A stretch of DNA of 64,000 nt from an uncultured Chloroflexia bacterium (GTDB lineage Bacteria; Chloroflexota; Limnocylindria; Limnocylindrales; CSP1-4): the NCBI GenBank assembly GCA_963719285.1, contig CAVRBO010000001.1:966918-1030917 (forward strand), in the 5' to 3' direction. How positions within the stretch are numbered: position 1 is the stretch's first letter; each line of letters begins with the position of its first letter. The notes beneath the pieces are model-generated. The model made no database searches. It was given only the letters and a program-made list of their open reading frames with translations, and was not told the DNA's origin. The translations under genes were made by a program, and so were the position numbers. Positions 1 through 25,222 of the stretch are shown here, in pieces.

Positions 1-151
1 CCAGGTCGGACAGCATCACGGTCATCACGGTCGGCAAATTCAGGTTGTCCTCGACGATCACTTCCTCGATCAATTCAAGCATCCCATCGGGCGCGTCGGT
101 GCCCCCGAACTTCAAGGTGCACCGATCGACCAGCAGCGACGCGACGGGCAT
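1..151 (-). CDS. partial CDS, N-terminus only (continues beyond window start): putative VgrG/gpD/Afp8-like spike-hub protein of the contractile-injection locus
   Basis: ATG at 151-149 overlaps the stop of the upstream gene (ATGA coupling); translation MPVASLLVDRCTLKFGGTDAPDGMLELIEEVIVEDNLNLPTVMTVMLSDL resembles N-termini of phage late-control-D/VgrG proteins; position right after the LysM hub gene fits eCIS/P2-like order. Confidence 0.3.
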   Translation of the reverse strand, partial: MPVASLLVDRCTLKFGGTDAPDGMLELIEEVIVEDNLNLPTVMTVMLSDL

Positions 152-152
152 G

Positions 153-860
153 TCAGGCGAGCGCCTTCAGGTCATCGATACTGGCCGGCAGCAGGATCGC
201 GTCGCCGGCCTGGATCCTCATGGGATCGTCGATCCCATTGAAGGCGGCCAGGGCGCGCCACAGGCCGGTCCGGCCGAAGTTCGCGTAGGCGACCTGGTCG
301 AGCGTCTCGCGCGGCGCGAGCCGATGGACCCGCTCTCCCGTCCGTCCGCCCGACGTCGGGTTCTGAGTCGGGAATGCGTTCTCGTCGGCGATCTGCATGA
401 ACGTCACGTCGACCGAGGCCCGGACGGGCGTTCCGTCGTCGAGGAACATGCTGAACCGGCTGATGACCTTCTGGACGACCGCATCGAACGACAGGTAGTT
501 GCCCCAGTGGAACCGGACCGTCGGCGGGCGACCCTGGAACGAGTTCGATGGCGCGTCGCCGCCGTTGGCACTGCTCCGACGACCCTTGAGGTCCTTGTTG
601 ACCTTGGTGAGCTCGGTCAGCCTGTTGATGATCTTGGCGACGTTCTGGCCATCCTCCGTTCCGTCGAACAGGAGGGTCACCGCCAGCGTCGCCGGGACTC
701 CACTGGCGAAGGACACTTCGGGCAGGTTCTGACCGTTCGTGTGATGGAGGTTCCAGGTGTTGCTCTTCGTGTAGGTGATCTGGTCGGGGTTGAACATCGC
801 CGTGATCTCGGCCGTGTTCCCTCCCTCCAGGGGCTTGATGTAGGCCATCTCGAGGCTCAT
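153..860 (-). CDS. phage-tail/eCIS baseplate hub or tube-initiator-like protein (Afp7/gpX-like) with C-terminal LysM-like motif
   Basis: 235-aa ORF; C-terminal HRLAPRETLDQVAYANFGRTGLWRALAAFNGIDDPMRIQAGDAILLP fits LysM consensus; located directly downstream of the tape-measure candidate. Confidence 0.55.
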   Translation of the reverse strand: MSLEMAYIKPLEGGNTAEITAMFNPDQITYTKSNTWNLHHTNGQNLPEVSFASGVPATLAVTLLFDGTEDGQNVAKIINRLTELTKVNKDLKGRRSSANGGDAPSNSFQGRPPTVRFHWGNYLSFDAVVQKVISRFSMFLDDGTPVRASVDVTFMQIADENAFPTQNPTSGGRTGERVHRLAPRETLDQVAYANFGRTGLWRALAAFNGIDDPMRIQAGDAILLPASIDDLKALA

Positions 861-3352
861 CGCAACAGTCCTCCCAAGCCGCCCATGCGCTCACGTTCCT
901 CGAGCATGCGCCGCTGGACGGCGTGCACGAGATCGCGCTCCTCCCGGCGCCGGCGCTGGTCCCTGCCGACGGGCAGGGTCCGATCCTCACTCGCCGCCTG
1001 CTCGCCGGGTTCAGCCCCGTGGGTCTCGGAGGCGCCCTGGCCCGATCCCGGGATCCACTCACCGACGTGCACTCGGGATCCGAAATCCGGCGATGGGCTG
1101 GCCGCAGTGCCGGGGAGAGAGAAGGTCGCCGGCGGTCCGGGTGTGAAGGCGAGCGGGGCAAACGCCGGTTCCGGAGGCGCGCCGCTCTCTCGGTCGGGAC
1201 CCTCGGTCGGGGTCGGGCCGGGCCCTTCTCCTTCGTCGATCCGGGTGACAACCTCGGGCGCTCGGGCAGCCAGGTGCTCCCCGGGTGCCTCGGCCGCGGT
1301 CGCTGGGCGCGCGGCGCTCGCCTGCAGCCCGCCGATCAACGTCGCCAGCGGGCTGTCAGCCTCGGCCTGGCCGGGACCACCTGCCGCCGCCTGACCGATC
1401 GCCTCGGCGATGCCGATCAGTCCGGGCGATCCGCTCCCGGCACCGCCGGGAGTCTCGGCGCCCGCGGGTCCTCCCGCCACGGTCGCTCCGCCGGCCGACG
1501 CCTGCGCTGAGGCGATCTCGGTGGCCGATCCGCCGGCAAGCAACTCGCGGATCGTGGGGCTCGTTCCCGGTCCGGCCGTGCCGGTACTCCGGTCCTCGAG
1601 ACCCGACCCTTGGGGTGCACCGCCCTCGGGCACCGGGGTCGAGGCACGGAGCGCGGCGACCGATCCCTCGGGTCCGGGCTGCGACGAGGATGGTGCCGTC
1701 TCGGCCAGCTCGGCCGCACCGCCACCGGCGGCCCGTTCGACCGCGGCGAGATGGCCGACCGCGCCTTCGGCCAGCTCCGTGCCGTGGTCGACGGTCGAGC
1801 GGGCGAGCGTCTCGCCGTGGGCGAGGGCCTGTCCGGCGAGCGTCTCGCCGTGGCTCGTGGCGGCCTGGCCGAGCGCCTCCGCGTGGGCGGCCGCCTCGCC
1901 GGCCAGGGATTCGCCATGGTCGACGACGGACCGCTCCATCGCGCCGAGGTGGCCGGCCGCGGTCTCGGCCAGCTGGGCCGCACCGCCGCCGGTGGCCTGT
2001 TCGATCGCGCCGAGATGGCCGCTCGCCTCCCCCGCCAGGGTCTGGGCGTGGGTCACCGCGGCGTCGCCCAGGGCGGCCGCCTGGGTCGTCGCCTCGCTCG
2101 CCAGGTCGCCGGCATGGCCGACCGCGGCCTGCTCGAGCGCCTCCGCGTGGGCGGCCGTCTCACCGGCCAGGGATTCGCCATGGTCGACGACGGACCGCTC
2201 CATCGCGCCGAGGTGCCCGGCCGCGGTCTCGGCCAGCTCGGCCGCACCGCCACCGGCGGCCCGTTCGACCGCGGCGAGATGGCCGACCGCGCCTTCGGCC
2301 AGCTCCGTGCCGTGGTCGACGGTCGAGCGGGCGAGCGTCTCGCCGTGGGCGAGGGCCTGTCCGGCGAGCGTCTCGCCGTGGCTCGTGGCGGCCTGGCCGA
2401 GCGCCTCCGCGTGGGCGGCCGCCTCGCCGGCCAGGGATTCGCCATGGTCGACGACGGACCGCTCCATCGCGCCGAGGTGGCCGGCCGCGGTCTCGGCCAG
2501 CTGGGCCGCACCGCCGCCGGTGGCCTGTTCGATCGCGCCGAGATGGCCGCTCGCCTCCCCCGCCAGGGTCTGGGCGTGGGTCACCGCGGCGTCGCCCAGG
2601 GCGGCCGCCTGGGTCGTCGCCTCGCTCGCCAGGTCGCCGGCATGGCCGACCGCGGCCTGCTCGAGCGCCTCCGCGTGGGCGGCCGTCTCACCGGCCAGGG
2701 ATTCGCCATGGTCGACGACGGACCGCTCCATCGCGCCGAGGTGCCCGGCCGCGGTCTCGGCCAGCTCGGCCGCACCGCCACCGGCGGCCCGTTCGACCGC
2801 GGCGAGATGGCCGACCGCGCCTTCGGCCAGCTCCGTGCCGTGGTCGACGGTCGAGCGGGCGAGCGTCTCGCCGTGGGCGAGGGCCTGTCCGGCGAGCGTC
2901 TCGCCGTGGCTCGTGGCGGCCTGGCCGAGCGCCTCCGCGTGGGCGGCCGCCTCGCCGGCCAGGGATTCGCCATGGTCGACGACGGACCGCTCCATCGCGC
3001 CGAGGTGGCCGGCCGCGGTCTCGGCCAGCTGGGCCGCACCGCCGCCGGTGGCCTGTTCGATCGCGCCGAGATGGCCGCTCGCCTCCCCCGCCAGGGTCTG
3101 GGCGTGGGTCACCGCGGCGTCGCCCAGGGCGGCCGCCTGGGTCGTCGCCTCGCTCGCCAGGTCGCCGGCATGGCCGACCGCGGCCTGCTCGAGCGCCTCC
3201 GCGTGGGCGGCCGTCTCACCGGCCAGCCGGAGGCTTGCGTCCGCGAGGTCGCGGCTCGGACCGGCCAGCTCGTCCGCTATCCCGCGCGCCCGCGCGAAGA
3301 TGTCGTCCGCGAGTCGGCTGGCCTCGTCGAGGATGTCCCGGGGATCCGCCAC
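857..3352 (-). CDS. repetitive Ala/Gly/His/Glu-rich protein; candidate tail tape-measure protein
   Basis: 831-aa ORF; about 2.9 tandem copies of a 176-aa unit, each made of two diverged 88-aa sub-repeats (ETAAGHLGAMERSVVDHGESLAGE...); sits between tube/chaperone genes and baseplate hub gene, the classical tape-measure position. Confidence 0.5.
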   Translation of the reverse strand: MADPRDILDEASRLADDIFARARGIADELAGPSRDLADASLRLAGETAAHAEALEQAAVGHAGDLASEATTQAAALGDAAVTHAQTLAGEASGHLGAIEQATGGGAAQLAETAAGHLGAMERSVVDHGESLAGEAAAHAEALGQAATSHGETLAGQALAHGETLARSTVDHGTELAEGAVGHLAAVERAAGGGAAELAETAAGHLGAMERSVVDHGESLAGETAAHAEALEQAAVGHAGDLASEATTQAAALGDAAVTHAQTLAGEASGHLGAIEQATGGGAAQLAETAAGHLGAMERSVVDHGESLAGEAAAHAEALGQAATSHGETLAGQALAHGETLARSTVDHGTELAEGAVGHLAAVERAAGGGAAELAETAAGHLGAMERSVVDHGESLAGETAAHAEALEQAAVGHAGDLASEATTQAAALGDAAVTHAQTLAGEASGHLGAIEQATGGGAAQLAETAAGHLGAMERSVVDHGESLAGEAAAHAEALGQAATSHGETLAGQALAHGETLARSTVDHGTELAEGAVGHLAAVERAAGGGAAELAETAPSSSQPGPEGSVAALRASTPVPEGGAPQGSGLEDRSTGTAGPGTSPTIRELLAGGSATEIASAQASAGGATVAGGPAGAETPGGAGSGSPGLIGIAEAIGQAAAGGPGQAEADSPLATLIGGLQASAARPATAAEAPGEHLAARAPEVVTRIDEGEGPGPTPTEGPDRESGAPPEPAFAPLAFTPGPPATFSLPGTAASPSPDFGSRVHVGEWIPGSGQGASETHGAEPGEQAASEDRTLPVGRDQRRRREERDLVHAVQRRMLEERERMGGLGGLLR
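1703..3214. repeat. near-perfect 528-bp tandem repeat array (about 2.9 copies) inside the tape-measure candidate
   Basis: identical strings recur with period 528 nt (tcggccagctcggccgcaccgccaccggcggcccgttcgacc at about 1703, 2231 and 2759); antisense ORFs 2053-2511 and 2581-3039 translate identically. Confidence 0.85.
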
Positions 3353-3353
3353 C

Positions 3354-3833
3354 TCAGATCACCCGCTCGATGCCCTTGTGGGTCAGCTCGATCGTCTCGA
3401 ACGCGAGCAGGGTGCTGTGCGTGTCGAGGAGGGGGCCGTTGTACTTGACCGGGAATGCGCCGGTGAACGTCCAGGTCGCCACGGGTGAGGGCGACTCACC
3501 GTTCATGAGCGTGATCATGCCGTCCGAGCGGGCCTGACCGATCTTGCCGATCTTGACGCTGTCGAACCAGTCGAAGAAGGCCGTTTCCTTGAGGGCGACG
3601 ACGCCTTGCAACACCAGGTTCGGCCAGCTCTTCCTGCCGGGCAGCATCCGGTACTGGCCGGAGGCGCCGCCCTCCCAGATGGGGGTGGTCTCCATGGTCT
3701 GGTCGAGTCCCTTGATCGATCGGCACAGCAGCCAGGTGGACACACCCCACACGGGGACGTAGCCGACCGGCGGATCCACGAGGACCTCGAACCAATGGGC
3801 GCCCGATCCATCGACCAGGCTGCGTTCGCTCAT
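3354..3833 (-). CDS. phage tail tube-like protein (third tube-family paralog, T4 gp19/Afp1-5 family)
   Basis: 159 aa; HWFEVLVD...IKGLDQTMETTPIWEGGASG matches the F-x-V-x-IDG ... vsGl..e.ev.eyrEGG pattern of contractile-tail tube proteins. Confidence 0.45.
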   Translation of the reverse strand: MSERSLVDGSGAHWFEVLVDPPVGYVPVWGVSTWLLCRSIKGLDQTMETTPIWEGGASGQYRMLPGRKSWPNLVLQGVVALKETAFFDWFDSVKIGKIGQARSDGMITLMNGESPSPVATWTFTGAFPVKYNGPLLDTHSTLLAFETIELTHKGIERVI

Positions 3834-3836
3834 GGG

Positions 3837-4163
3837 TCAGCGCCGCCGGTGGTTGAGCTCTTCGTGGAGCTCCAGCAGGCGGGCGCGACGCTCGGCGTCC
3901 GTGCTCATCCGGGGCGCCGGCGGTGCGGTCGGCACGGATACGCCGGCCGCCGGCGCAGCCGCGCCCGGTGCGGACTCGGCGCGTCCGGCGGCCGCGAGCC
4001 AGAGGCGCCGCTCGGCGCCGGGCATGGACATGAGCGTCTCGTAGCTCCAACCGAAGCTCTTCGCCAGGCTGGCCACCTCCTCCACGGTCACGTGCGAGGG
4101 GTGGCCGGCGCTCCCCCCAGGCCACCGACCTCCGGCGGAAGGAGCTCCCCGCAATGGGGACAC
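3837..4163 (-). CDS. small hypothetical protein; candidate downstream (-1 frame) part of a frameshifted tail-assembly chaperone
   Basis: ORF overlaps the preceding 141-aa ORF by 76 nt in the -1 frame; no recognisable domain; likely own start further in (VTVEEVASLAKSFGW...). Confidence 0.35.
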   Translation of the reverse strand: MSPLRGAPSAGGRWPGGSAGHPSHVTVEEVASLAKSFGWSYETLMSMPGAERRLWLAAAGRAESAPGAAAPAAGVSVPTAPPAPRMSTDAERRARLLELHEELNHRRR

Positions 4164-4513
4164 ACGGGCTTCGCCTCGAGGGGGTCGAGGTTGAGCCGGC
4201 GATACAGGCGCTGGAGATAGCTGAAGTCCGAGGCGTAGAGACCCTCGACGACCTCGGGCGTGACGGCTGGCACGGTGCCGAGCCGGGTCACGACCCGAGC
4301 GAGGAGGAGGACCACGAGATACGCCCGGTTGCGGGCGACCCGCGGATCCGTGAGCGGCGCCAGCTCGTCGCGAGCCGTGGCCAGGCGCATCCGGCCGTCC
4401 CGGTGGACGGTCCCGGCTGCGTCGAGATAGCCCTGGGGCAGGCTGAAGTGGACCTCGCTCGCGAGGACCCCTCCGACGCCCGCGACCTCCGCCGGGTCAG
4501 CCATGGCCACCAT
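4088..4513 (-). CDS. small hypothetical protein with C-terminal CPHC motif; candidate tail-assembly chaperone (upstream frame)
   Basis: 141-aa ORF directly after the tube genes, ends ...KPVCPHCGELLPPEVGGLGGAPATPRT; position equals gpG/gpE chaperone slot before tape measure. Confidence 0.4.
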   Translation of the reverse strand: MVAMADPAEVAGVGGVLASEVHFSLPQGYLDAAGTVHRDGRMRLATARDELAPLTDPRVARNRAYLVVLLLARVVTRLGTVPAVTPEVVEGLYASDFSYLQRLYRRLNLDPLEAKPVCPHCGELLPPEVGGLGGAPATPRT

Positions 4514-4516
4514 GGC

Positions 4517-4960
4517 TCAGACCCACTCGAATTTCACGGATTCGCACTGGAAGACCACGGTCTCGACCCACAGGATGCTCTTCTGGATCGACAGGTCGCT
4601 GGCGCTCCACTTGGACGGCCAGGCGTCCGACAGGACGACGATGAGGACGGGCTTCTTGGACGTGTCCCAGAAGGTGATGGTGCAGTCGGCGCGGGCGGAC
4701 CCGATCTCCCCTTCCTGGATCTTCTTGAGGCCGGCCCACCACGGCCCTTCGGCCTGGAGCTGCTCCATGTACCCGGCCGACAGGGTCACCGGGTAGCAGC
4801 CGTACTTGCCGGGGATCTTGAGGATCTTGGGGCTGCCCTTCTCCGAGGACACGTTCTGCTCGAGGACCTTCGTGTCGCTCCTGATGCCGGTGATCCTCGA
4901 GAAGACCCCGGCCGCGGCACCCCAGTTGACGGTGATGGCGTATCCGCCGAGTACTGGCAT
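4517..4960 (-). CDS. phage tail tube protein (Afp5/Pvc5-like paralog)
   Basis: 147 aa; YAITVNWGAAAGVFSRITGIRSDTKVLEQNV fits tube-family N-terminal motif; adjacent to second tube gene and sheath. Confidence 0.6.
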   Translation of the reverse strand: MPVLGGYAITVNWGAAAGVFSRITGIRSDTKVLEQNVSSEKGSPKILKIPGKYGCYPVTLSAGYMEQLQAEGPWWAGLKKIQEGEIGSARADCTITFWDTSKKPVLIVVLSDAWPSKWSASDLSIQKSILWVETVVFQCESVKFEWV

Positions 4961-4963
4961 CGG

Positions 4964-5410
4964 CTACAACCTCGTTCGGGTGATGCCCTCGTGGGCAAGG
5001 GTGACGTCGACCTGGATCCAGCCCTCACCGCCCTGGGGGACGCTCCCGACGGAGATGGCGGACGGCCAGGCGGCCTCGAGATCGAACGACATCACGGGCA
5101 TGTGCGTGGCGTCCTGCATGATGATCGAGACGTGCTTGCGCTCCATCGTCCCGGCCTCGATCTTGTTGCGCCACATGCCGAGCTGGGCGGCCTTCTCGAG
5201 CTCCATGGTCGAAACCGTGACCGTCGAGTTCTTGTTGACGCCCGGGGAGCGGTGCGGGGCGCGGCCCGCACCGCCCCGCGCCTCGGCGTCCTCGAGGACG
5301 GCGACCTCGAACCCGATGCCGGTGACCGAGGTCATGGACATCGGTTCGAGCCCGTCGATGAGGACCTGGAAGTTCCCCATCGTGAGATCGGGGATCCGGG
5401 GAAGTGCCAT
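4964..5410 (-). CDS. phage tail tube protein (Afp1/Pvc1-like)
   Basis: 148 aa; MGNFQVLIDGLEP...VTGIGFEVAVLEDAEARGG is a close match to the gp19/tube family signature; immediately downstream of sheath. Confidence 0.7.
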   Translation of the reverse strand: MALPRIPDLTMGNFQVLIDGLEPMSMTSVTGIGFEVAVLEDAEARGGAGRAPHRSPGVNKNSTVTVSTMELEKAAQLGMWRNKIEAGTMERKHVSIIMQDATHMPVMSFDLEAAWPSAISVGSVPQGGEGWIQVDVTLAHEGITRTRL

Positions 5411-5454
5411 GGTTGTCTACCTCCGTTGGGTGACGATGGCGGCCGCGCGGGGCA

Positions 5455-6981
5455 TCAGCCCTCGCCGCCCCCGCCGCCCTCGCCGGGCGCGATCTGGCGG
5501 ATGTTGAAGATCACGAACTCGGCCGGACGGACCGGGGCGAGCCCGATCTCGACGACGACCTGCCCCGCCTCGATCACGTCCTGGGGATTGGTCTCTGCGT
5601 CGCACTTGACGTAGAACGCCTCGTCCGGGGTCACCCCGAACAGCGCGCCGTCGCGCCAGACCCGGTTGAGGAACGCCGACGTGTTCCGTCGCAACTTGGC
5701 CCACAGGATGATGTCGTTCGGTTCGAAGACCGACCACTGCGTGCCCTGCATGATCGAGCTCTTGATGAAATTGAACAGGCGGCGCACGTTGAGGTACTTG
5801 AACTCGGGGTCGACCTGGGCGAGCGTGCGGGCGCCCCAGACGCGGACACCGCCGCGCGGGAAGACCCGGATGCAGTTGATGCCGGCCGGGTTGAGCAGGC
5901 CCTGCTCGGCGCTCGTCAGCTGGAGCTGGACGTCGAGCGCGCCGCGGACCGTCTCGTTGGCCGGGGCCTTGTGGACGCCGCGGGTGTCGTCGTTGCGGCC
6001 CCAGATCCCGCCGAGGTAACCCGACGGCGGCATGAACACCGGCTGTCGGCTCAGGGGATCGATGACCTTGACCCACGGGTAGTACAGCGCGGCGTACGAG
6101 CTGTCGACCTTGAGCTGGTCGCGCCGCCAGTCGAAGACCTCCTGGGCGCCCAGGCCCGGGGGCGTGTCGAGGATGGCGACCCGGTCGGCCATCCGCTCGG
6201 CGTGCGACACCAGCGCCAGCTGGATGCCGATCGCCTGGTCCATCGAGATGGCACCCATCGCCTGCATCGGCATGACGTCGGGGGCGAGGACCATCGTGAC
6301 TTCCTCGATCGCCTCGAGGCCGGCGACGCCGGTCCGATCCGCGACGTCGCCGGCGAAGGCGCTCGTCTCGACGTCGGCCGGAGCCGCATCGGCGGCGGCG
6401 AAGGCGTACGTCCCGTCGGCCGGCCGACGCTCGACGAGGCTGCCCTCCGTCGAGACCTCGTCGAGAGTGATGAGCTTGGACCGCGACTTCACCTCGGTGA
6501 GGACGTTGCCCTTGCCCTTCTTGAGCGTGACGTTGTCGTATTCCTCGGTCGCTCCCGCCGGCCCGTGGACGGTCAGCTTGAACGTCTCCTCGGTCGGCTC
6601 GCTGGCCGGCCCGATGTCGACCGACACCTGGGCGGCCGGATCGATGGCGCGGGCGCGCAGGCTCTTGAGCGCGGGATTGGCGCCCGGCAGCAGCGCCTGC
6701 GGGGCGGGCACCGAGCTGTCGCTGTTGACCCGCACGATGTAGGCCCGGCCACCGCCGTTGTCGAAGTAGCCGTAGACGGACAGCGGGGTGGCGTAGCCGG
6801 ACACGAACCCGCCGAACGTGCGCGAGTAGTCGCCCCAGTTGCTGACCATGGTGGCGACGCCGGTGGGACCCTTCTCGGTCATGCCGATGAACGCGGCGAT
6901 CGCCGTGCCGACCCCTTCGATCGGCTTGCTTCCGCCCGGGAGCTCTTTGACGTAGACGCCTGGGGACTGATAGACGGCCAT
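5455..6981 (-). CDS. contractile tail sheath protein
   Basis: 508 aa; N-terminus MAVYQSPGVYVKELPGGSKP... is the canonical sheath start (MAxYxSPGVYVxE); size and position upstream of tube genes. Confidence 0.85.
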   Translation of the reverse strand: MAVYQSPGVYVKELPGGSKPIEGVGTAIAAFIGMTEKGPTGVATMVSNWGDYSRTFGGFVSGYATPLSVYGYFDNGGGRAYIVRVNSDSSVPAPQALLPGANPALKSLRARAIDPAAQVSVDIGPASEPTEETFKLTVHGPAGATEEYDNVTLKKGKGNVLTEVKSRSKLITLDEVSTEGSLVERRPADGTYAFAAADAAPADVETSAFAGDVADRTGVAGLEAIEEVTMVLAPDVMPMQAMGAISMDQAIGIQLALVSHAERMADRVAILDTPPGLGAQEVFDWRRDQLKVDSSYAALYYPWVKVIDPLSRQPVFMPPSGYLGGIWGRNDDTRGVHKAPANETVRGALDVQLQLTSAEQGLLNPAGINCIRVFPRGGVRVWGARTLAQVDPEFKYLNVRRLFNFIKSSIMQGTQWSVFEPNDIILWAKLRRNTSAFLNRVWRDGALFGVTPDEAFYVKCDAETNPQDVIEAGQVVVEIGLAPVRPAEFVIFNIRQIAPGEGGGGGEG

Positions 6982-7010
6982 CGGACCTCCTTGTGGACCT
7001 CCCTGGTTGA

Positions 7011-7658
7011 CTAGCGCTCGACGGTTTCGCGGACCCGCGTCCGCAGGTCATCGGTATGGAGTCGGCGGCTCCGGACGATCCCGACCGGGGCGAGCTCGAA
7101 CGGCTGGACAGCCATCGTCATGACCGCCTTGAGGGCCGCCCGCGGCAGCCGCACGAGGCCGTACTCCCACCATGCGTGGAGTTCCGCCTCGGTCGGCGTG
7201 TCGATGACGGCGTAGACCGGGTACTCGCTCTCGATGCCGAGCGCCCGCGCGAGGTCGCCGGCCCGGATACCGGCGGACAGCAGTCGCTCGAGGGCATCGG
7301 CGGCCGCGATCTCGTCACCGCCGGCCTCGAGGGCCACGGTGAGGTCGTACCAGCCGGGCCCGGCTCGCACCGCCATGCCCGTACCGGTGGGATCCCGCGA
7401 GACTTCCCGGGCGGCGGCCTGGAACCGCTCGGTCCGGACGATCGAGACGAGGTGAAGGGTCACCGCGCCGGCCGGATCATCCGCGGCCCGGTCGGCCGTG
7501 GCCGGGCCATCCGAGGCGGACGCCGCGCCGGACCCGGTCAGGGCCGCGGCGGCCGCGCCGGGTCGCCCGACCCGGGCCGGCTGGCCGGTCGCCTCCTGGG
7601 CGAACGTGGCGAGGGCGGTCAACGCTTCAGGAAACACCGGGCGCTCCCGGGCGCTCAT
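7011..7658 (-). CDS. hypothetical protein at head of the sheath operon; possibly tail-terminator-like (DUF4255/Afp16-like), unverified
   Basis: 215-aa ORF, 30 nt upstream of sheath; weak resemblance of VTLHLVSIVRTERF...WYDLTVALEAGG to DUF4255 pattern; many eCIS loci carry that family immediately before the sheath. Confidence 0.3.
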   Translation of the reverse strand: MSARERPVFPEALTALATFAQEATGQPARVGRPGAAAAALTGSGAASASDGPATADRAADDPAGAVTLHLVSIVRTERFQAAAREVSRDPTGTGMAVRAGPGWYDLTVALEAGGDEIAAADALERLLSAGIRAGDLARALGIESEYPVYAVIDTPTEAELHAWWEYGLVRLPRAALKAVMTMAVQPFELAPVGIVRSRRLHTDDLRTRVRETVER

Positions 7659-8007
7659 CGCCGGTCAGGGCCTCGCGCAGGGTGCTCGCCGTGACGGGCT
7701 CAAGGGTGAAGCTCGCACCGCTCGCCGGATGCACCCGCAAGCGCGGCCGATCGTCGTCGCACTCGACCACCTGGAGGGCCGGCTGGCGGGCCCGCAACGC
7801 GCGCACGATCGCGTCGGCCTCCGGACCCATCCGCACGATCACGGCGTCCGGATGGAGGCGGACGACGGCGTCGGTGAGGACCCGCGGATCGGCGAGACCA
7901 TCGGCCGCCGCCGCGTCGAGGACGTCGAAGTGCTCCTCGATGAGGGTCTGGGTCAACCCCCGGGCGACCAGGGGGTCGAGGTCTCCGATGAGGACACGGC
8001 TCGCCAC
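7627..8007 (-). CDS. small receiver-domain-like protein lacking the canonical phospho-acceptor Asp (atypical/pseudo receiver), hypothetical
   Basis: 126 aa; VLIGDLDPLVARGL...HPDAVIVRMG aligns with REC motifs (VLIVDDHPLVR ... PDVVLMDL) but R replaces the phosphorylated D; first gene after the promoter region. Confidence 0.35.
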   Translation of the reverse strand: MASRVLIGDLDPLVARGLTQTLIEEHFDVLDAAAADGLADPRVLTDAVVRLHPDAVIVRMGPEADAIVRALRARQPALQVVECDDDRPRLRVHPASGASFTLEPVTASTLREALTGDERPGAPGVS

Positions 8008-8224
8008 CGGCCGAGTGTCGAGCGTGGCGGCTGCGGACCGGTAGCCACCCGAGGGCAGTCATGTGGGCCGGAATGGGCAACCGCCCCGTGCGCGTCGCTG
8101 CCCGAAGGTGCCACCGATGGTGCCCGGACGGGTAGCGGCGGTCGGCGCGCGGAACCATGCGCGGGTCGAGGCGTGGCGGGGTCGCGATGGGCGTGCGACA
8201 GCGGCCAAGGTCGGGCCCCGAGAT

Positions 8225-8244
8225 GGCAAGACGTGCGTCTTGCC
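8225..8244. promoter_or_regulatory. perfect 9-bp inverted repeat with 2-nt spacer (GGCAAGACG tg CGTCTTGCC); hairpin or operator candidate
   Basis: read directly from sequence in the 305-nt region between regulator gene and eCIS operon. Confidence 0.4.
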
Positions 8245-8261
8245 GGGATGGAGCCGGCTAC

Positions 8262-8301
8262 CGATGCCGCGGTCAGGCGAACGATGCCGCGGTCAGGCGA
8301 A
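8262..8301. promoter_or_regulatory. 20-nt tandem direct repeat (cgatgccgcggtcaggcgaa x2, partial third copy to about 8311); candidate regulator binding site
   Basis: exact duplication visible at 8262-8281 and 8282-8301, lying between the LuxR-type regulator gene and the eCIS operon start. Confidence 0.4.
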
Positions 8302-8312
8302 CGTCAGGTCGC

Positions 8313-8996
8313 TCAGATGAGGTTCTTGCGCAACGCATAGGCGACCGCGTGGGTGCGGTTGCGCAGGCCGAGCTTGATCACCACGTCGTGGATCGCGTTC
8401 TTCACGGTCCGCTCGGAGTACGACAGCTTGAGCGCGATCTCGCGGGTGTCGTCGCCCTCGGCGGCCAGTCGGAGGATCTCGACCTCGCGCGGGGAGAGCC
8501 CGCTCAGGCCCACGCCCCGGGGCGTCCAGACCTCGCGACTCATCCGGCCGATGTGCTCGACGAGGTCGCCGAGCATGGCCGGCGGGATGAGCCCGTCCCC
8601 GCAGGCGATGGCCCGCAGGCTCGCGGCGAGGGTCTCGGTCCGCATGTCCGCCTTGAGCAGATAGCCGACCGCGCCCGCCTCGATGGCGCGGTACAGCTCG
8701 AGCGTGTCCGGCTGTGCGGCACAGACGACCGCGCGGGTGCCCGGGGCGGCTTCGCGCAGGGCGTTCACGACCCGCAGGCCGTCCCCATCGGCGAGGTGCA
8801 TGTCGATTAGGGCGAGCGTGGGCTGCTCCGCCATGCCGATCCGGACCGCGGTGTCGCCGTCCTCGGCCTCGCCAGCGACGACGAAGTCCGGTTCGCCCGC
8901 GAGGCACGATGCGATGCCCCGGCGGAACATGGCGTGGTCATCCGCGATGAGCGTCCGGATCACCCCGTCGGGGCGCGTCGAGTCTGGTCGTTCCAA
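8313..8996 (-). CDS. two-component response regulator, NarL/LuxR family (REC + LuxR-type HTH)
   Basis: VIRTLIADDHAMFRRGI...DMHLADGDGL receiver motifs with conserved DD and phospho-acceptor D; C-terminal LSPREVEILRLAAEGDDTREIALKLSYSERTVKNAIHDVVIKLG is the LuxR HTH signature. Confidence 0.85.
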   Translation of the reverse strand: MERPDSTRPDGVIRTLIADDHAMFRRGIASCLAGEPDFVVAGEAEDGDTAVRIGMAEQPTLALIDMHLADGDGLRVVNALREAAPGTRAVVCAAQPDTLELYRAIEAGAVGYLLKADMRTETLAASLRAIACGDGLIPPAMLGDLVEHIGRMSREVWTPRGVGLSGLSPREVEILRLAAEGDDTREIALKLSYSERTVKNAIHDVVIKLGLRNRTHAVAYALRKNLI

Positions 8997-9131
8997 CGGG
9001 GGGTGCCTCTCTCCTCCGTCCAGCGGCGGATCGTCGTCCGGTGGTCCGAGTATAGGGACGGGTTCGGGGCGGCTCTACTGCCTTATCCACAAGGACCGTC
9101 CACAAAGGGCATCCGGTCGTACACTCGGCGG

Positions 9132-10247
9132 GTGGTACGAGCGGCGATCCTGGAGCGGCCCGGCCACCCCCTGACCGTCGGCGACGTCGTCCTCGATCCG
9201 CCCGCGGCCGGCGAGATCCGGGTCCGTATGACGGCCAGCGGCGTCTGCCACTCCGACCTCCACGTCCGCGACGGTGAGTGGCCGAGGCCGGGCCCCTTCG
9301 TCATCGGCCACGAGGGCGCGGGCGTGGTCACCGAGCTCGGTCCGGGGGTCGATCCGTCCGCGACCGGCCTGCGTCCGGGCGGAGCGGTCGCGCTCAGCTG
9401 GATCGCCCCGTGTGGCGCGTGCCGGCAGTGCCTGGCCGGGCGGGCCTGGCTGTGCGTCGACAACGGGGCGGTGCGCCACCGGATGGCGGACGGGTCCACC
9501 CGCCTGCACGGGCCCGATGGGCGCGACCTGCTCGCCTACTGCGGCCTGGGCACGATGGCGGAGGAGGCCACGGTCGCGGCGTCGGCCGCGGTGCCGATGC
9601 CGGACGGGGTTGACCCGGCGGTCGCGGCGCTGATCGGCTGCTGCGTTTCGACCGGCGTGGGCGCCGCGCTCAAGACGGCGGCCGTGCCGGCCGGCTCGTC
9701 GGCGGTCGTCATCGGCCTGGGCGGCGTCGGCCTGTCGGTCGTGATGGGCCTGGTCCTGGCCGGCGCCGACCCGATCATCGCGGTGGACCGGATCCCGGCC
9801 AAGCTCGAGCTCGCTCGCGAGCTCGGGGCGACCCAGGCGATCCGGGCCGGCACCGACGCCGACGCGAGCCTGGCGGCGATCCGGGCGGCCACCGGCGGCG
9901 GACCGGAGTACGCGTTCGAAGCCATCGGCCTGCCGACGACGATCGAGCTCGCGATCGGCTGCCTGCCGCCGGGCGGGACGGCGACGCTCGTCGGCATGAC
10001 CCCGTTCGGCGAGCGGGCGAGCTTCGAGGTCTTCCCGTTCGTGGACGGCGGCCGGCGGATCCTGGGCAGCAATTACGGCTCGGCGGTGCCCGCCGTCGAC
10101 TTCGTGCGGTACGCCCAGCTCCACCTCGACGGCCGCCTGCCGATCGCCCGTCTCATCGAGCGACGGATCGGCCTCGACGAGGTGGAGGACGCCTTCGCCG
10201 CCATGCGCCGGGGCGACGGACTCCGCCGGGTCGTCGCCTTCGACTGA
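9132..10247 (+). CDS. zinc-dependent alcohol dehydrogenase (class III/mycothiol-formaldehyde dehydrogenase-like)
   Basis: GVCHSDLHVRDGEW, GHEGAGVV, CGACRQCLAGRAWLC zinc ligand motifs and GLGGVGLSVV Rossmann motif; GTG start chosen at VVRAAILERPGHPLTV. Confidence 0.8.
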   Translation: MVRAAILERPGHPLTVGDVVLDPPAAGEIRVRMTASGVCHSDLHVRDGEWPRPGPFVIGHEGAGVVTELGPGVDPSATGLRPGGAVALSWIAPCGACRQCLAGRAWLCVDNGAVRHRMADGSTRLHGPDGRDLLAYCGLGTMAEEATVAASAAVPMPDGVDPAVAALIGCCVSTGVGAALKTAAVPAGSSAVVIGLGGVGLSVVMGLVLAGADPIIAVDRIPAKLELARELGATQAIRAGTDADASLAAIRAATGGGPEYAFEAIGLPTTIELAIGCLPPGGTATLVGMTPFGERASFEVFPFVDGGRRILGSNYGSAVPAVDFVRYAQLHLDGRLPIARLIERRIGLDEVEDAFAAMRRGDGLRRVVAFD

Positions 10248-10275
10248 GGGCGGCCGGCGATCGTCCGGGCCACCG

Positions 10276-10294
10276 GACCCGGCAGCCGGGTCCG
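10276..10294. terminator. GC-rich hairpin (ggacccgg cag ccgggtcc) between convergent adh and ppdK; bidirectional terminator candidate
   Basis: 8-bp perfect stem, 3-nt loop, 29 nt after adh stop and about 30 nt after ppdK stop on the other strand. Confidence 0.45.
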
Positions 10295-10300
10295 CGACGC

Positions 10301-10324
10301 TCCCCTACTTGTCGCGTTGCTCCC

Positions 10325-10340
<16 letters not shown>
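10301..10340. repeat. 20-nt tandem duplication of the ppdK 3' end (ctcccctacttgtcgcgtt g/c)
   Basis: two adjacent identical 19/20-nt copies; the second copy contains the last codons (ERDK-stop) of ppdK. Confidence 0.7.
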
Positions 10341-13102
<2,762 letters not shown>

Positions 13103-13348
13103 GGGGACAGGCTCCTTCGGGAGTGTTCCGTGCGTCGCGGGCTGCGCGGCACGTTCGCCCGGGAGTCTCCGTGCGCCGCTTCATGGCGGCGTCTTCGCGC
13201 GGGAGTCGTGAGCCCGGCGCTCGATCGTACCACCGGTCGTCGGATGGGGACCATTGCGGACGGGTTGCGGGAGGGGACAGAGCCGGTCCCGGGCGCGACC
13301 TCCCCGCTACCCGGTCGGGCGGTCCCGTGACGCCCGTCGGGCTACACT

Positions 13349-13363
13349 GGGGACGTCGTCCCC
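13349..13363. promoter_or_regulatory. perfect 7-1-7 palindrome GGGGACG t CGTCCCC about 60 nt upstream of fpr; operator candidate
   Basis: seen directly; preceded by TACACT (-10-like) in the 320-nt divergent ppdK/fpr intergenic region. Confidence 0.3.
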
Positions 13364-13422
13364 GGCTGCCCGCCTGGCCGATCGCCGATGTGCCGAGAGG
13401 AGACGCCCGACCCGTGATCGAG

Positions 13423-14244
13423 ATGCCGCCGGACGAGCGCGTCATCGACCCGGCCGCGCCGGTCTACAACGCCCGGCTCGTGCGCCGTGTCGACGAGACG
13501 GACAGCCTCGCCTACTTCTGGGTCCGCTTCGACGGCGAGCCGACCCCGTTCGAGCCCGGCCAGTACATGACGACCGGCGTGTTCGCCGACGGCCGGCTCG
13601 TCCAGCGGCCGTACTCCGTCGCGTCGTCACCCCGGGTCGCCGGCACGGAGGGCTACGAGTTCTATGTCCGCCTCGTCCAGGGCGGACAGTTCACCCCGCT
13701 GCTGTGGCGCCTGCCGGTGGGCCACAGGATGCGGATGATCGGCCCGAAGGGCAAGTTCATGCTCGAGCCGGACGACGACCGGATCCACCTGTTCATCTCG
13801 ACCGGGACCGGCAATGCGCCGTTCGTCTCGATGATGAAGACGATGCTCCTCGACGGAACACCGCGCCGGGCCGTCTTCGTCAACGGCGTGTCGTACGCCG
13901 ACGAGCTCGGCTATCGGGGCCTCGTCCAGGACTGGGAGGCGTCGGGGACATACCCGGTCCACTACGTGCCCACGGTGTCGCGACCGGCCGACCCGCGCAA
14001 TGTCGGCTGGAAGGGTCGGGTCGGGCGAGCCGAGACGGTCCTCGCGTCGATCTGCGAGGACCACGGCCTCACGCCCGACAACGCCATCGCCTACATCTGC
14101 GGCAATCCGGACATGATCCTCGCGGCCGAGGCGATCCTGCTCGAACGCGGGTTCCCCGAAGCGCAGGTCAAGAAGGAGCTCTACTGGCCGAAGGGCAAGG
14201 AGCCTCGCGGCGCGGCCGTCATCGAGCGGCCCGAGGACGACTAG
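13423..14244 (+). CDS. fpr: ferredoxin-NADP(+) reductase-type flavoprotein (FNR family)
   Basis: RPYSVAS FAD-binding motif (RxYS), GPKG and ISTGTGNAPF NAD(P)-binding motifs; GAGGAG-like RBS before ATG at 13423. Confidence 0.75.
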   Translation: MPPDERVIDPAAPVYNARLVRRVDETDSLAYFWVRFDGEPTPFEPGQYMTTGVFADGRLVQRPYSVASSPRVAGTEGYEFYVRLVQGGQFTPLLWRLPVGHRMRMIGPKGKFMLEPDDDRIHLFISTGTGNAPFVSMMKTMLLDGTPRRAVFVNGVSYADELGYRGLVQDWEASGTYPVHYVPTVSRPADPRNVGWKGRVGRAETVLASICEDHGLTPDNAIAYICGNPDMILAAEAILLERGFPEAQVKKELYWPKGKEPRGAAVIERPEDD

Positions 14245-14248
14245 CGGC

Positions 14249-14377
14249 TCAGCCGAGGTTCGGCGGCGCCGGGGGTGGGCCGGCGGCCACCCCGGCCAGC
14301 CAGATCGCGGCCACGATCCCCAGCCCGATCGCGACGATCACGCCGATCCACAGGTATCGGTGCAACAGGGCGCTCAT
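14249..14377 (-). CDS. very small predicted membrane protein (single TM helix), hypothetical
   Basis: MSALLHRYLWIGVIVAIGLGIVAAIWLAGVAAGPPPAPPNLG; hydrophobic helix; weak evidence only. Confidence 0.25.
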   Translation of the reverse strand: MSALLHRYLWIGVIVAIGLGIVAAIWLAGVAAGPPPAPPNLG

Positions 14378-14402
14378 CGTCGTCGATCCCTTCCGGTCCC
14401 GG

Positions 14403-15158
14403 TCACGGGACGCTCGCAGTGCCGGCGACCGAGGTGAGCAGCGCGGCCTTCGCGGCCGCGAACTCGTCATCGGTCAGGTCGCCGCGCGCATGGAGATCGG
14501 CGAGGCGTTCGAGTTCATGGGCGAGGTCGGGCCCGGCGTCCCGGCCGGTCGGGGCGTCGGAGACTCCAGCCGGCGCGTGCTCGAGCGACCGGTCGGCGTG
14601 CGCCGTCGGGCCCACGCCGGCCGCGAGCTGGGCGGCCCGGAGGCGCTCCCTGGCCGCGCTGTCGCCCGCTCCGCCGAACTTGAGCCCGAGGACGAGCGGG
14701 ATCCCGCCCATGAGCTCGAACAGGATGCCCGGGATGAGGAAGCCGAGTTCCAGTCCGCCGCCGCCGGGCGGCGAGACGCCGTACTGGAGGAAGTTGAACC
14801 CGAGCGTGCAGAAGAGGGCCGGCCAGGCCAGGAACGGGACCGAGCTGTAGCGCCCTCCGATGCTGGCTCCGGCCCAGAACGCGAGCGCGCCCCAGCCGAA
14901 CCCGCCGAAGATCGCGAGGAACATGAGCCAGGTGCCCTGGGGGCAGGGCTGGGCGCTGACGTACGGCCCACCGTCCGCGCACGAGCCGCCGACGTCGAGC
15001 ACCGCCCGCATCTCGATGAACATCAGCGCGATCGAGAATGCGAGGCCGGCGATGCCGACGAGATAGAGCAGGACCGTCCGGGACGACGGACCGGTCGTGG
15101 CGCCGGCGTCGCTTTCCGCGTCACCGCTGCGGCCCGTCACGGACGCGTCGCTCGTCAT
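14403..15158 (-). CDS. membrane protein with C-terminal SHOCT domain
   Basis: four hydrophobic segments and C-terminal LERLADLHARGDLTDDEFAAAKAALL typical of SHOCT (short C-terminal) domains. Confidence 0.5.
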   Translation of the reverse strand: MTSDASVTGRSGDAESDAGATTGPSSRTVLLYLVGIAGLAFSIALMFIEMRAVLDVGGSCADGGPYVSAQPCPQGTWLMFLAIFGGFGWGALAFWAGASIGGRYSSVPFLAWPALFCTLGFNFLQYGVSPPGGGGLELGFLIPGILFELMGGIPLVLGLKFGGAGDSAARERLRAAQLAAGVGPTAHADRSLEHAPAGVSDAPTGRDAGPDLAHELERLADLHARGDLTDDEFAAAKAALLTSVAGTASVP

Positions 15159-15162
15159 CGGG

Positions 15163-16569
15163 TCACGGCCGGGCGGCGGCCAGCCGATCGAGGATCGCCC
15201 GCTTGACGCCCTCGACGGGGATCCGTTCCTGGGCCATCGAATCGCGGTCCCGCACCGTCACCGCCCCGTCCTCGAGGGAGTCGACATCCACCGTGATGCA
15301 CCACGGCGTGCCGATCTCGTCCTGACGACGATAGAGCTTTCCGATGGCCGCCGTGTCGTCGTAGACCGCCATGATGTCGCGCTTCAGGTCCGCCTTGATG
15401 CGGTGGCACAGCTCGACGATCTCGGGTCGCTTCTTGAGCAGCGGAAGGACGGCGACCTTGTACGGCGCGAGCTCCGGGTGGAGGGCCAGCGAGACGCGGG
15501 TCTCGCCGCGGACCTCCTCCTCGCGATAGCTGTCGATGAGGAACGCGAACGCCGCCCGGTCGGGCCCGCCGGCGGTCTCGACGATGAACGGCGTGTAGTG
15601 CTCCTCGGTCGCCGGATCGAAGTAGTCGAGGTTCTCGCCCGACGCCTGGGCGTGGCGCGACAGGTCGAAGTCGCCCCGGTTGTGGATGCCCTCGAGCTCC
15701 TTCCAGCCGAACGGGAAGCGGTACTCGATGTCGACCGCCTTCCTGGCGTAGTGGGCGAGCTCGTCCGGGGCGTGCTCGCGGAAACGCATCCGCTCGGCCG
15801 TGAGGCCGTAGCCGGTGTACCAGTCCCAGCGCCGCGGGAGCCACTCCTCGAAGATCGCGGCGGCCGTGTCCGGCCGGACGAAGTACTGCATCTCCATCTG
15901 CTCGAACTCGCGCATCCGGAACACGAAGTTCCCGGGGCTGATCTCGTTGCGGAACGACTTGCCCACCTGGGCGATCCCGAACGGGATCTTCTTGCGCGAG
16001 CTCTCCCGCACGTTCTTGAAGTTCACGTACGAGCCCTGGGCCGTCTCGGGCCGGAAGTAGACGATCGAGCCGTCGTCCTGGACGGGGCCCATCCACGTCT
16101 GGAACATCAGGTTGAACCGCCGGGGCGCCGAGAGCGGGCCGCCGTCGTTCGGGCAGACGAGTCCAAGCCGGCCGACGACCGTCGGGTCCATCAACTCGGT
16201 CGCGCTGAGGGCCTCGGCTCCGGCGAGCTCGTCCAGGCGGTAACGCCGCCGGCACGTGCCGCACTCCACGAGCGGATCGGTGAAGCTGCCGACGTGGCCG
16301 GAGGTCACCCAGACCTGGGGGTGCATGATGATCCCCGCGTCGAGGCCCACGATGTCGTCGCGGTCCTGGACCATCGCCCGCCACCACGCCCGCTTCACGT
16401 TGTTCTTGAGCTCCACGCCGAGCGGTCCGTAATCCCACACGGCGTTGATGCCGCCGTAGATCTCGCTGCTCGGGAAGACGAAGCCACGCCGCTTCGACAG
16501 GGACACGATCGTGTCCAGATCGGCGACGGCGGGCGCGACATCGTTCGGGTTCGCGGGGGTCTCGGTCAC
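15163..16569 (-). CDS. glyQS: glycine--tRNA ligase (homodimeric type)
   Basis: DTIVSLSKRRGFVFPSSEIYGGINAVWDYGPLG N-terminus and class II aaRS motifs (FRNEISPG, FRMREFEQMEMQYF); GTG start at VTETPANPND. Confidence 0.85.
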   Translation of the reverse strand: MTETPANPNDVAPAVADLDTIVSLSKRRGFVFPSSEIYGGINAVWDYGPLGVELKNNVKRAWWRAMVQDRDDIVGLDAGIIMHPQVWVTSGHVGSFTDPLVECGTCRRRYRLDELAGAEALSATELMDPTVVGRLGLVCPNDGGPLSAPRRFNLMFQTWMGPVQDDGSIVYFRPETAQGSYVNFKNVRESSRKKIPFGIAQVGKSFRNEISPGNFVFRMREFEQMEMQYFVRPDTAAAIFEEWLPRRWDWYTGYGLTAERMRFREHAPDELAHYARKAVDIEYRFPFGWKELEGIHNRGDFDLSRHAQASGENLDYFDPATEEHYTPFIVETAGGPDRAAFAFLIDSYREEEVRGETRVSLALHPELAPYKVAVLPLLKKRPEIVELCHRIKADLKRDIMAVYDDTAAIGKLYRRQDEIGTPWCITVDVDSLEDGAVTVRDRDSMAQERIPVEGVKRAILDRLAAARP

Positions 16570-16681
16570 GGGGACTCCGGTGGGGACTGGGCTGCCGATG
16601 CTATCAGAGCCCGCCGTCCCGGCCCGCCCGGTCGCGCGGGTGGTCGACCCGGAGCCGCCGGCGCTCGTCCGACGGTCGCGG

Positions 16682-17455: not shown

Positions 17456-17584
17456 CGCCCGACGGTAGCACGAGGCGGTCGTGCCGGCCGCTCACGGTCG
17501 AGCCTCTCGCGTCCCCGGCCCCTCGGGTCAATCCGCTACCATGGTCGCGCAAGTTTGTGCCGGAGCGGATACACTCTGCCCACG

Positions 17585-25180: not shown

Positions 25181-25222
25181 GTGCGAGTCGCCGCGCGGCA
25201 TCCGGAGCGCCGGGCTGCCCGA

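Follow-up and report, generated by a model that had tools for sequence, protein, structure and literature searches.

The left end of the 64,000-nt stretch of DNA analysed here (hereafter the window) holds, at positions 1-8007, a run of minus-strand genes for a contractile sheath, tube proteins and baseplate parts, and this raises the question of what kind of contractile machine they encode, how it would be assembled and where it would act. An initial annotation had read these genes as part of a contractile injection system (CIS) rather than as a prophage. All ten open reading frames (ORFs) that it listed were confirmed on the minus strand (Table 1), and Pfam profiles verified the sheath, three gp19-type tube proteins and a CIS_tube protein. 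Codon-position GC of the ORFs is like that of real genes, in a genome of 70-75% GC, and the junctions between them range from -4 to +44 nt. Since neighbouring genes are separated by 1-44 nt or overlap by 4 nt, we regard them as a single operon, and the window holds the promoter-proximal two-thirds of it. With good confidence we assign the locus as a chromosomal CIS of dbeCIS subtype IId, of the S. coelicolor cytoplasmic family, in a host that is likely a member of the Limnocylindria.

Identity and lineage of the system

In a search of all PDB sequences the sheath matched that of the S. coelicolor CIS (8bky/9gtp) over residues 2-502 with an E-value (E) of 6.6e-154, and a second S. coelicolor pair (8bl4/9gts) over its full length with 7.6e-151. 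The corresponding values were 8.6e-50 for Pvc2, 2.7e-45 for Afp3, ~1e-13 for T4 gp18 and 7e-8 for pyocin R2, and among PHROG families the protein matched tail sheath at 6.6e-72. For the inner tube and the LysM hub, too, the best hit in the PDB was the S. coelicolor CIS structure: for the tube 8bl4_v/9gtp (6.8e-10) and for the hub, over its residues 22-227, the Cis7 'LysM domain-containing protein' of the baseplate (9gtp_P, E 1.5e-23). The LysM domain for which the hub had been named is itself sub-threshold in Pfam (E 0.011, 16.1 bits vs. a cut-off of 20.9), but the hub assignment stands on end-to-end homology to Cis7. Matches of the second tube paralog were to tubes of other CIS (9r9h_B, Anabaena All3324 and AlgoCIS). 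The third tube-like protein is indeed of the gp19 type, but because it matches S. coelicolor Cis1b (9gtp_a, 6.8e-8), Pvc5 and Afp5 we correct its identity to a tube initiator; it also matched NCBIfam CIS5_fam at 6.7e-17, under the equivalog cut-off.

The operon had been predicted to continue past the window start, and this was borne out on L001 (L-numbers denote contigs or loci of relatives), a 2.04-Mb metagenome contig from the European Nucleotide Archive (ENA) that carries the exact sheath sequence. Window positions 1-16981 are the reverse complement of L001 with 11 substitutions and no gaps (99.935% identity over 16,981 nt). There the VgrG-like first codons seen at the window edge lead into a complete VgrG (551 aa, Phage_GPD + Phage_base_V), followed leftward by gp25 (188 aa), Baseplate_J (654 aa, the Cis11 wedge) and Tail_P2_I (203 aa, Cis12). 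The VgrG start also matches L002 exactly, and a look-up with the LysM hub protein found only a 2.4-kb Logan contig. L087, a Joint Genome Institute (JGI) contig 92.6% identical in nucleotides to the end of L001, carries the cluster further left, with Tail_P2_I followed by a CisA-like protein, two proteins without Pfam matches, a histidine kinase with a LuxR regulator, and 6-phosphogluconate dehydrogenase (6PGD). On L083-85, contigs of Limnocylindria metagenome-assembled genomes (MAGs) with an 81% identical Tail_P2_I, the same cluster is bounded by metabolic genes and also includes a PAAR gene; the CisA-like protein has 697 aa in this case.

The CisA-like membrane protein was seen in L087, L084, L010 and L019, and its position and architecture are those of the Streptomyces gene downstream of Cis12. 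The proteins of L087 (at least 328 aa) and L084 (697 aa) each combine a Zn_ribbon, one transmembrane segment and a NADase_transloc/F5_F8_type_C domain, and identity to the Streptomyces positional equivalent is 22% (E 6e-7), from the zinc ribbon through the C-terminus. In L087 its frame extends unbroken back to the Tail_P2_I stop, with a second zinc ribbon and a Pro-rich linker in it. Two minus-strand, Gly/Ala-rich ORFs after Tail_P2_I (L087 1868-2404, 178 aa, and L086 6639-7091, 150 aa) were rejected as genes; they are probably artefacts that lie antisense to this Pro-rich linker, whose frame stays open to Tail_P2_I.

We compared this gene content with the eight core genes that Chen et al. 2019 (PMC6899500) defined for extracellular CIS (eCIS). 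Present are the Afp1/5-type tubes, the Afp2/3/4-type sheath and the Afp7 LysM hub, to which L001 adds Afp8 VgrG (of which the window holds the start only), Afp9 gp25 and Afp11 Baseplate_J. Traits of subtype IId on L001 are a VgrG in a single contiguous ORF and a single Afp11. The CIS of Streptomyces and of Chloroflexota/Deinococcota belong to this subtype and are intracellular (PMC10066040, PMC10020575, PMC10286715, PMC12998442). With Baseplate_J as the query, at least 560 relatives were found among species-representative genomes; the best of them (44-48% identical) come from Chloroflexia, Limnocylindrales, Dormibacterota and Acidimicrobiia MAGs and from dozens of Streptomyces, all syntenic. 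Synteny with ~50 Streptomyces loci and the MAG loci is accompanied by 45-58% identity, and close homologs carry the names 'Candidatus Limnocylindria bacterium' and 'Chloroflexota bacterium', which suggest a host in the Chloroflexota class Limnocylindria. The kind of CIS itself is not novel, as IId has already been described in Streptomyces and Chloroflexota.

Two small proteins had been annotated at the head of the operon. Both exist, one as a probable cap by its fold and the other as a weakly receiver-like protein. For the cap candidate 47 homologs were found, all at least 51% identical and none (0/47) with a Pfam domain; their alignment sets a conserved start at 'VFPEAL', which corresponds to the GTG at 7634 and is probably the true start. 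By sequence the protein had no match in Pfam (even at E<=5, including DUF4255/Pvc16_N, the profile for which a check had been proposed), NCBIfam, PHROG or PDB sequences. A Foldseek search with an AlphaFold2 (AF2) model built from the homolog alignment placed five CIS caps first, all with E between 1e-4 and 1e-3 and probability 1.00: PlPVC1 (9qgn_A, 1.1e-4), Anabaena (7b5i_AA, 2.1e-4), S. coelicolor Cis16 (9gts_0A, 3.5e-4), AlgoCIS (7adz_0A) and PVC (6j0f_A), followed by the Mu terminator, T4 neck and Afp16. L003 and L069 have a Pvc16_N gene in the cap position. In view of these folds and of Pvc16_N at the equivalent position, the modelled product is read as a probable, divergent cap, recognisable by fold only. 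The 126-aa protein encoded ahead of it aligns in register with the REC domain of the adjoining regulator (29% identity, E 0.018), has Arg at the position of the phospho-acceptor Asp and is conserved in L001, L089 and L090. It had no match in Pfam, PHROG or PDB sequences, and we tentatively describe it as a degenerate receiver-like protein.

Table 1. Positions of the CIS operon genes and associated features in the window.
Feature	Position	Strand	Basis
VgrG-like spike start (Cis8/Afp8), 50 codons, ATG at 151	1..151	-	cut by window edge
LysM baseplate hub / second tube-initiator layer (Cis7/Afp7-like)	153..860	-	CIS_tube PF19266 2.2e-25
Tape-measure-like protein, 831 aa	857..3352	-	repeats, conserved ends; ruler function inferred
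Tandem array, 2.9 perfect copies of a 528-bp (176-aa) unit	1698..3226	-	1001-nt perfect self-match at shift 528
Tube initiator / adaptor (Cis1b/Cis5/Afp5-like)	3354..3833	-	Phage_T4_gp19 5.5e-23
-1-frame ORF, DUF6760-like	3837..4163	-	Pfam DUF6760 6.7e-5 (below cut-off), PHROG 10636 2.2e-4
Tail assembly chaperone homolog, 141 aa	4088..4513	-	phrog_508 'tail assembly chaperone' E 1.1e-8
G GGG GGA heptamer, candidate -1 frameshift site	4112..4118	-	X XXY YYZ phase, 28 nt before chaperone stop
Second tube paralog	4517..4960	-	Phage_T4_gp19 3.8e-12
Inner tube (Cis1a-like)	4964..5410	-	Phage_T4_gp19 4e-17
Contractile sheath (Cis2-like)	5455..6981	-	Phage_sheath_1 3.7e-23, Phage_sheath_1C 4.8e-17
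Probable cap / tail terminator (Cis16/Afp16-like)	7011..7658	-	predicted fold
126-aa receiver-like protein, first operon gene	7627..8007	-	weak pairwise match to REC
Intergenic repeats + hairpin	8225..8295	-	between regulator gene and first operon gene
Response regulator, REC + LuxR/GerE helix-turn-helix	8313..8996	-	Pfam Response_reg 7.6e-17, GerE 5.4e-14

S. coelicolor CIS-Sc (cis/sco4242-4260) and S. lividans SLP resemble the locus in sheath (~50% identical) and Baseplate_J (45%), in having no tail fibre and a LuxR-family regulator nearby, and in gene order: sheath, tube, chaperone-like gene, small ORF, tube initiator and LysM hub, then single-ORF VgrG, gp25, Cis11, Cis12 and the CisA-like membrane protein. 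Apart from the host phylum, the locus differs from them in that the cap gene lies directly upstream of the sheath, with no Cis15 ATPase or effector block (sco4256-4258 equivalents) in between, and in an extra tube paralog. The large protein is encoded after the tube initiator here and before it there; it is made of alpha-helical His-hendecads (831 aa) here and is Pro/Ala/Ser-rich and ~1000-1470 aa long in Streptomyces. The Chloroflexota/Deinococcota clade of Roseiflexus castenholzii (Gaisin et al. 2026, PMC12998442), which we compared by description only, is also IId, probably of the same phylum and Streptomyces-like in synteny, and its particles are intracellular and unanchored, as those of the present system would be. 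Its members are extremophiles, reportedly without close CisA homologs, and have an ATPase gene in the cluster, whereas the present lineage comes from mesophilic soil-type metagenomes and has a CisA-like gene (in the relatives L087 and L084) and no ATPase nearby. With Afp/PVC (subtype Ia) the locus has a common core of tube, sheath, Afp5, Afp7 LysM, Afp8, Afp9, Afp11 and, probably, an Afp16-like cap. The Afp/PVC sheaths are far more distant (E ~1e-38 to 1e-50), there is no Afp13 fibre, Afp14-type tape measure, Afp15 ATPase or toxin gene here, and the chaperone/tape-measure order is phage-like.

Chaperone gene, overlapping frame and long repeat protein

A phage-like order with a chaperone-like pair and a tape-measure candidate had been noted at the outset, and the 141-aa protein of the pair is indeed a tail assembly chaperone homolog. 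PHROG 508, and no other PHROG, was matched by 30 of 40 diverse members of its family, which comprises 1086 clusters at 50% identity, and the top PDB fold of its AF2 model (mean predicted local distance difference test, pLDDT, 86.9) is the HK97 tail assembly chaperone 2ob9_B, a weak match (E 0.11, probability 0.90). The protein is ~55% identical to the product of the same-position gene in ~50 Streptomyces loci; by gene order the Streptomyces equivalent is SCO4251, of 'unknown function' in the literature.

The overlapping ORF pair is also real. The chaperone stop overlaps a GTG at 4091 (GTGA), from which 84 aa can be read in the -1 frame, and this frame stays open for another 76 nt upstream, to 4163, so its product would be made either alone or as an extension of the chaperone. 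A putative phage-like G/GT frameshift is suggested by the in-phase G GGG GGA heptamer, for which the predicted junction peptide reads ...GLGG followed by SAGHPSHVTVEEVA... at 4118-4112. The run of six Gs is invariant in six divergent loci (G GGG GG(A/G)) while flanking bases vary, and the -1-frame peptide right after the heptamer is conserved across lineages (GG-x-A-G-[HY]-P ... EEVA). GGG-GGA is the sole such Gly-Gly codon pair in 7240 codons checked. L019 has no ATG, GTG or TTG start ahead of the conserved -1-frame motif, and in L003 the only start candidate is a TTG with no nearby Shine-Dalgarno sequence. Streptomyces-type loci have five Gs only, together with a GTGA/ATGA overlap of stop and start, so that translational coupling explains those loci just as well and may also apply here. 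The RNA structure downstream of the heptamer (z -2.15) is not decisive as a stimulator. In L089 the chaperone and the -1 ORF appear as one 261-aa gene (13114-13899), which we rejected as a natural fusion because VgrG is also broken there (17467-19141) and the junction is a G6 homopolymer, where long-read indels are likely.

The arrangement recalls the tail module of phages such as lambda, HK97 and P2 (gpG/gpGT or E/E', -1 frameshift + tape measure) in its PHROG 508 chaperone homolog, whose top fold match is the HK97 chaperone, a -1-frame ORF across the chaperone 3' end, an in-phase slippery-type heptamer and a long helical repeat protein nearby. It differs in belonging to a headless chromosomal CIS and in the tube-initiator gene that lies between the chaperone pair and the long protein; moreover, the frameshift is here a candidate, and the Streptomyces-type small ORF has its own overlapping start codon.

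The tape-measure candidate itself is truly built of repeats. A conserved 45-residue N-terminus is followed by 46 hendecads at aa 50-553, 37 of which begin with His and nearly all of which have Leu, Ile, Met or Val at position 5. The C-terminal half is G/P/A-rich with short conserved islands and ends in the motif ..QRRMLEERERMGG (motif as DLVHAVQRRMLEERERMGGLGGLLR). A Pfam Apolipoprotein match (2.3e-17, below cut-off) is explained by the 11/22-residue amphipathic periodicity, and a homolog search with the protein gave no matches, presumably owing to low complexity. At the DNA level 2.9 copies of 528 bp form a tandem array that recurs without change on L001, a separate deposit with 11 differences from the window at other positions. 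Collapse or expansion by the assembler therefore seems unlikely, provided that the two assemblies are independent. L089 (805 aa) and L090 (822 aa) have like arrays of diverged copies, with longest perfect self-matches of 273 and 33 nt, and L084 (803 aa) has a Pro/Ala/Glu-rich centre in place of the hendecad array. Despite this heavy turnover in sequence, total length in the four relatives compared stays at 803-831 aa, within 3%. The repeat sequence thus turns over fast and underwent recent homogenisation in the window strain.

CIS-Sc and SLP are described without a tape-measure gene and yet with a uniform particle length (PMC10066040, PMC12237407, PMC10286715), which is 268 nm for S. coelicolor and about 300 nm for SLP; in other IId species, measured lengths are 238 nm (C. 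chliarophilus) and 365 nm (D. aquatilis). In Streptomyces and in other MAG lineages we found a large ORF that directly follows the chaperone pair and precedes the tube initiator, in contrast to the window lineage, where the tube initiator comes first. Over 60 loci the same-strand large ORF fills a median 90% of the gap and antisense ORFs a median 59%. In Streptomyces the large ORF has ~1013-1470 codons, compared with 549-877 in the other MAGs, and in 51 of the 60 loci it ends 10-13 residues past a [DE]RERxG motif. The conserved amphipathic stretch before the motif, in Streptomyces LxHRxIGRxTRLxRTELRxDRERIGRLRDPR, is clearly related to the C-terminus of the window protein. On L003-L082 (~50 Streptomyces loci, e.g. 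L018 2810-6352) the ORF is intact, Pro/Ala/Ser-rich with a recurring 'PVQR' and a conserved C-terminal helix, and it is located between the SCO4251-like and Cis5-like genes on the same strand; one NCBI Streptomyces contig has the 3' end of the large ORF called on this strand. In the published supplement sco4249 (like sco4250) is annotated divergently from sco4248 (PMC10020575), and to judge from the other Streptomyces loci the apparent opposite-strand gene sco4249 may be an antisense mis-annotation.

We favour the 831-aa protein as a tape-measure or lumen protein because of its chaperone neighbour, helical repeats, conserved termini and conserved length. A different role, as a lumen cargo or effector or as a plug that nucleates the baseplate, without any ruler function, has been proposed for Streptomyces Tme and Sle1, and for the present protein it is a possibility to be taken seriously, if a somewhat doubtful one. 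Other actinobacterial CIS eject tape-measure-related proteins as effectors (PMC11126660, PMC13277306), the central region varies very strongly from lineage to lineage, and in L092 the common C-terminal motif sits on a much smaller protein. On the other hand, the 831-aa protein has no enzymatic, transmembrane or DUF4157 domain, its gene stands beside a tail assembly chaperone within a structural operon, and its length is kept in the four relatives despite the turnover in sequence; the genes for Sle1 and Tme lie in another place, ahead of the sheath gene and beside DUF4157 partners.

The case of L092 also speaks against a simple length ruler, a role that is putative for the 831-aa protein. The slot there (832-1716) holds one 294-aa protein that consists of the chaperone domain, a linker and the common C-terminal motif. 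Together with P0158, P0202, P0267 and P0195 it forms a set of 266-300-aa fusions ending in ..RLRRELLVERERMG, whose gene lies between those for tube and tube initiator, where a long ORF of its own is missing. The motif could thus serve for docking in the hub, and a ruler that simply counts residues is not certain. With this reservation, we propose as a tentative though real prospect that IId CIS, including those of Streptomyces, use a phage-type length module of chaperone, -1-frame ORF and large ORF ending in a ..ELRxDRERxG helix. Within that proposal, the -1 ORF may be fused to the chaperone by frameshifting at G GGG GGA in several lineages.

Mode of action

Homology and gene content make a cytoplasmic, CisA-dependent mode of action most likely; that particles assemble and fire inside the producer is deduced from work on related systems (PMC10066040, PMC12237407, PMC12998442). 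In such a scheme the baseplate (VgrG, LysM hub, tube initiator, gp25 and wedges) would nucleate, and the 831-aa protein would dock in the hub via its conserved C-terminal helix and extend along the tube lumen, with its solubility maintained by the chaperone and possibly also by a frameshifted chaperone fusion. Tube and then sheath would polymerise around it and the cap would close the distal end. The loaded particle would remain cytoplasmic, as tail fibres, lysis and secretion genes were not seen, until a stress signal leads the CisA-like protein to recruit it to the membrane for firing, as in Streptomyces. The adjacent LuxR-type response regulator would probably control expression.

Several points weigh against the overall interpretation of the locus. 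No AAA+ (Afp15/Cis15) ATPase was found in the 64-kb window or in the flanks of L001, L087, L084, L089 and L090, the sole Walker-A candidate in the window being a TsaE-like gene at 28896; the Afp15 ATPase counts among the eight eCIS core genes (PMC6899500) and occurs in the Streptomyces and Roseiflexus clusters. Either Cis15 is encoded elsewhere in the genome, as split loci are known, or it is absent. A PAAR gene was not found between VgrG and gp25 on L001; of the baseplate and accessory genes expected to the left of the window, gp25 and Baseplate_J were thus recovered, but not PAAR or the ATPase. The CisA-like gene and everything beyond VgrG codon 50 are known from related contigs alone. The cap model is of medium confidence (pLDDT 65.7), with fold matches at template modelling (TM) scores of ~0.4-0.5. 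Cytoplasmic location and function are extrapolated from Streptomyces and Roseiflexus.

A tailocin-like eCIS, released by lysis of a sub-population and injecting a toxin into other organisms, would agree with the presence of seven of the eight core components, the probable cap included, and the F5/8-type-C protein past the baseplate could in principle be a receptor-binding protein. That protein has, however, a transmembrane segment and the architecture of CisA. No tail fibre (with chaperone) and no holin/endolysin was found in the cluster or its flanks on L001, L083-85 and L087, no effector, DUF4157 or toxin gene was recognised in cluster or flanks, and the closest characterised systems (50% sheath identity) are intracellular (PMC10066040, PMC10286715, PMC12998442). 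We therefore consider an extracellular system unlikely. A decayed prophage tail module or a myovirus-derived R-type tailocin is highly improbable: the order of chaperone, -1-frame ORF and tape-measure-like gene is phage-like and PHROG tail families match sheath and tubes, but capsid, portal, terminase, integrase and lysis genes and att sites are missing from the window and from the flanks of near-identical and related contigs (including, to the left, the 99.935%-identical L001, where such genes would have pointed to a prophage), there are no fibre genes and no tRNA adjoins the locus, the GC is native, the same housekeeping context recurs in ~84%-identical relatives, a LysM hub, a CIS_tube domain, a probable Pvc16-like cap and a CisA-like gene are typical of CIS, and the sheath matches Streptomyces CIS ~100 orders of magnitude better than T4/pyocin. 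The initial preference for a CIS over a prophage is upheld.

Chromosomal surroundings and significance

The probably cytoplasmic IId system lies in an ordinary chromosomal setting, and locus GC equals that of the surroundings, with no anomaly. To its right the window holds the regulator, alcohol dehydrogenase (ADH) and pyruvate phosphate dikinase (PPDK), and further right housekeeping genes only (GlmU, GlmS, GlmM, CdaA, alanine racemase, ornithine carbamoyltransferase (OTCase), SecY, Map, ribosomal proteins and EF-Tu/EF-G). The flanks also include RecO and a tRNA synthetase on the ADH/PPDK side and 6PGD, amidohydrolase and acetate kinase on the other. L089 and L090, only ~84% identical, keep the neighbourhood of PPDK, ADH, regulator and cluster; the locus is thus a stable chromosomal feature rather than a recent insertion.

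In L089 and L090, too, the REC + GerE regulator gene precedes the cluster. Regulators of the GerE type belong to the known 'shell' genes of eCIS (PMC8213781), with SlpR/SCO4263 as their counterpart in Streptomyces (PMC10286715); the gene in the window likely encodes the regulator of the cluster. Directly after it come two perfect 20-nt direct repeats at 8256-8295 (GTTCGCCTGACCGCGGCATC, minus strand), followed at 8225-8244, still ahead of the first CIS gene, by a hairpin whose stem spans 9 bp (GGCAAGACG..CGTCTTGCC). Repeats and hairpin form a possible operator or terminator. A promoter/terminator scan of 1-9200 gave no signal above chance, and an Rfam scan of the window gave no match. Between the regulator and the 126-aa gene L089 (8447-9205) and L090 (754-1383) have two extra small ORFs with a 45-nt tandem repeat, compared with 305 nt of intergenic sequence only in the window.

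Elsewhere in the window, positions 43000-64000 are a ribosomal-protein (S10/spc/alpha-type) region with SecY, Map, EF-Tu and EF-G, which places the CIS ~35-40 kb from a core translation gene cluster. Between 24000 and 34000, GC is raised to 0.75-0.77; the ORFs at 25181-26629, 29049-30068 and 30099-31733 have no Pfam match, and the motif of the TsaE-like gene is of the P-loop type. ARAGORN called a 93-nt tRNA-Pro(GGG) at 43298-43390, within a coding ORF; Rfam at gathering thresholds found no tRNA in the window, and the call is probably a false positive.

Taken together, the locus adds mesophilic Limnocylindria-like Chloroflexota to the hosts of the Streptomyces-type CIS, which is probably cytoplasmic; this is an incremental step. 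It adds a new host class for IId, with a CisA-like membrane adaptor that was reported missing from the Roseiflexus clade. The pairing of a chaperone with a tape-measure-like protein stands out, as the literature describes the IId family as being without a tape measure. The most valuable lead is that the module of chaperone, -1-frame ORF and long protein is possibly an overlooked length apparatus of IId systems. The version in the window is unusually clean, with its 46 hendecads and three 176-aa modules, and makes the ruler idea directly testable. If the large ORF encodes a ruler or lumen protein, this would explain the uniform particle length and would offer a handle for engineering it.

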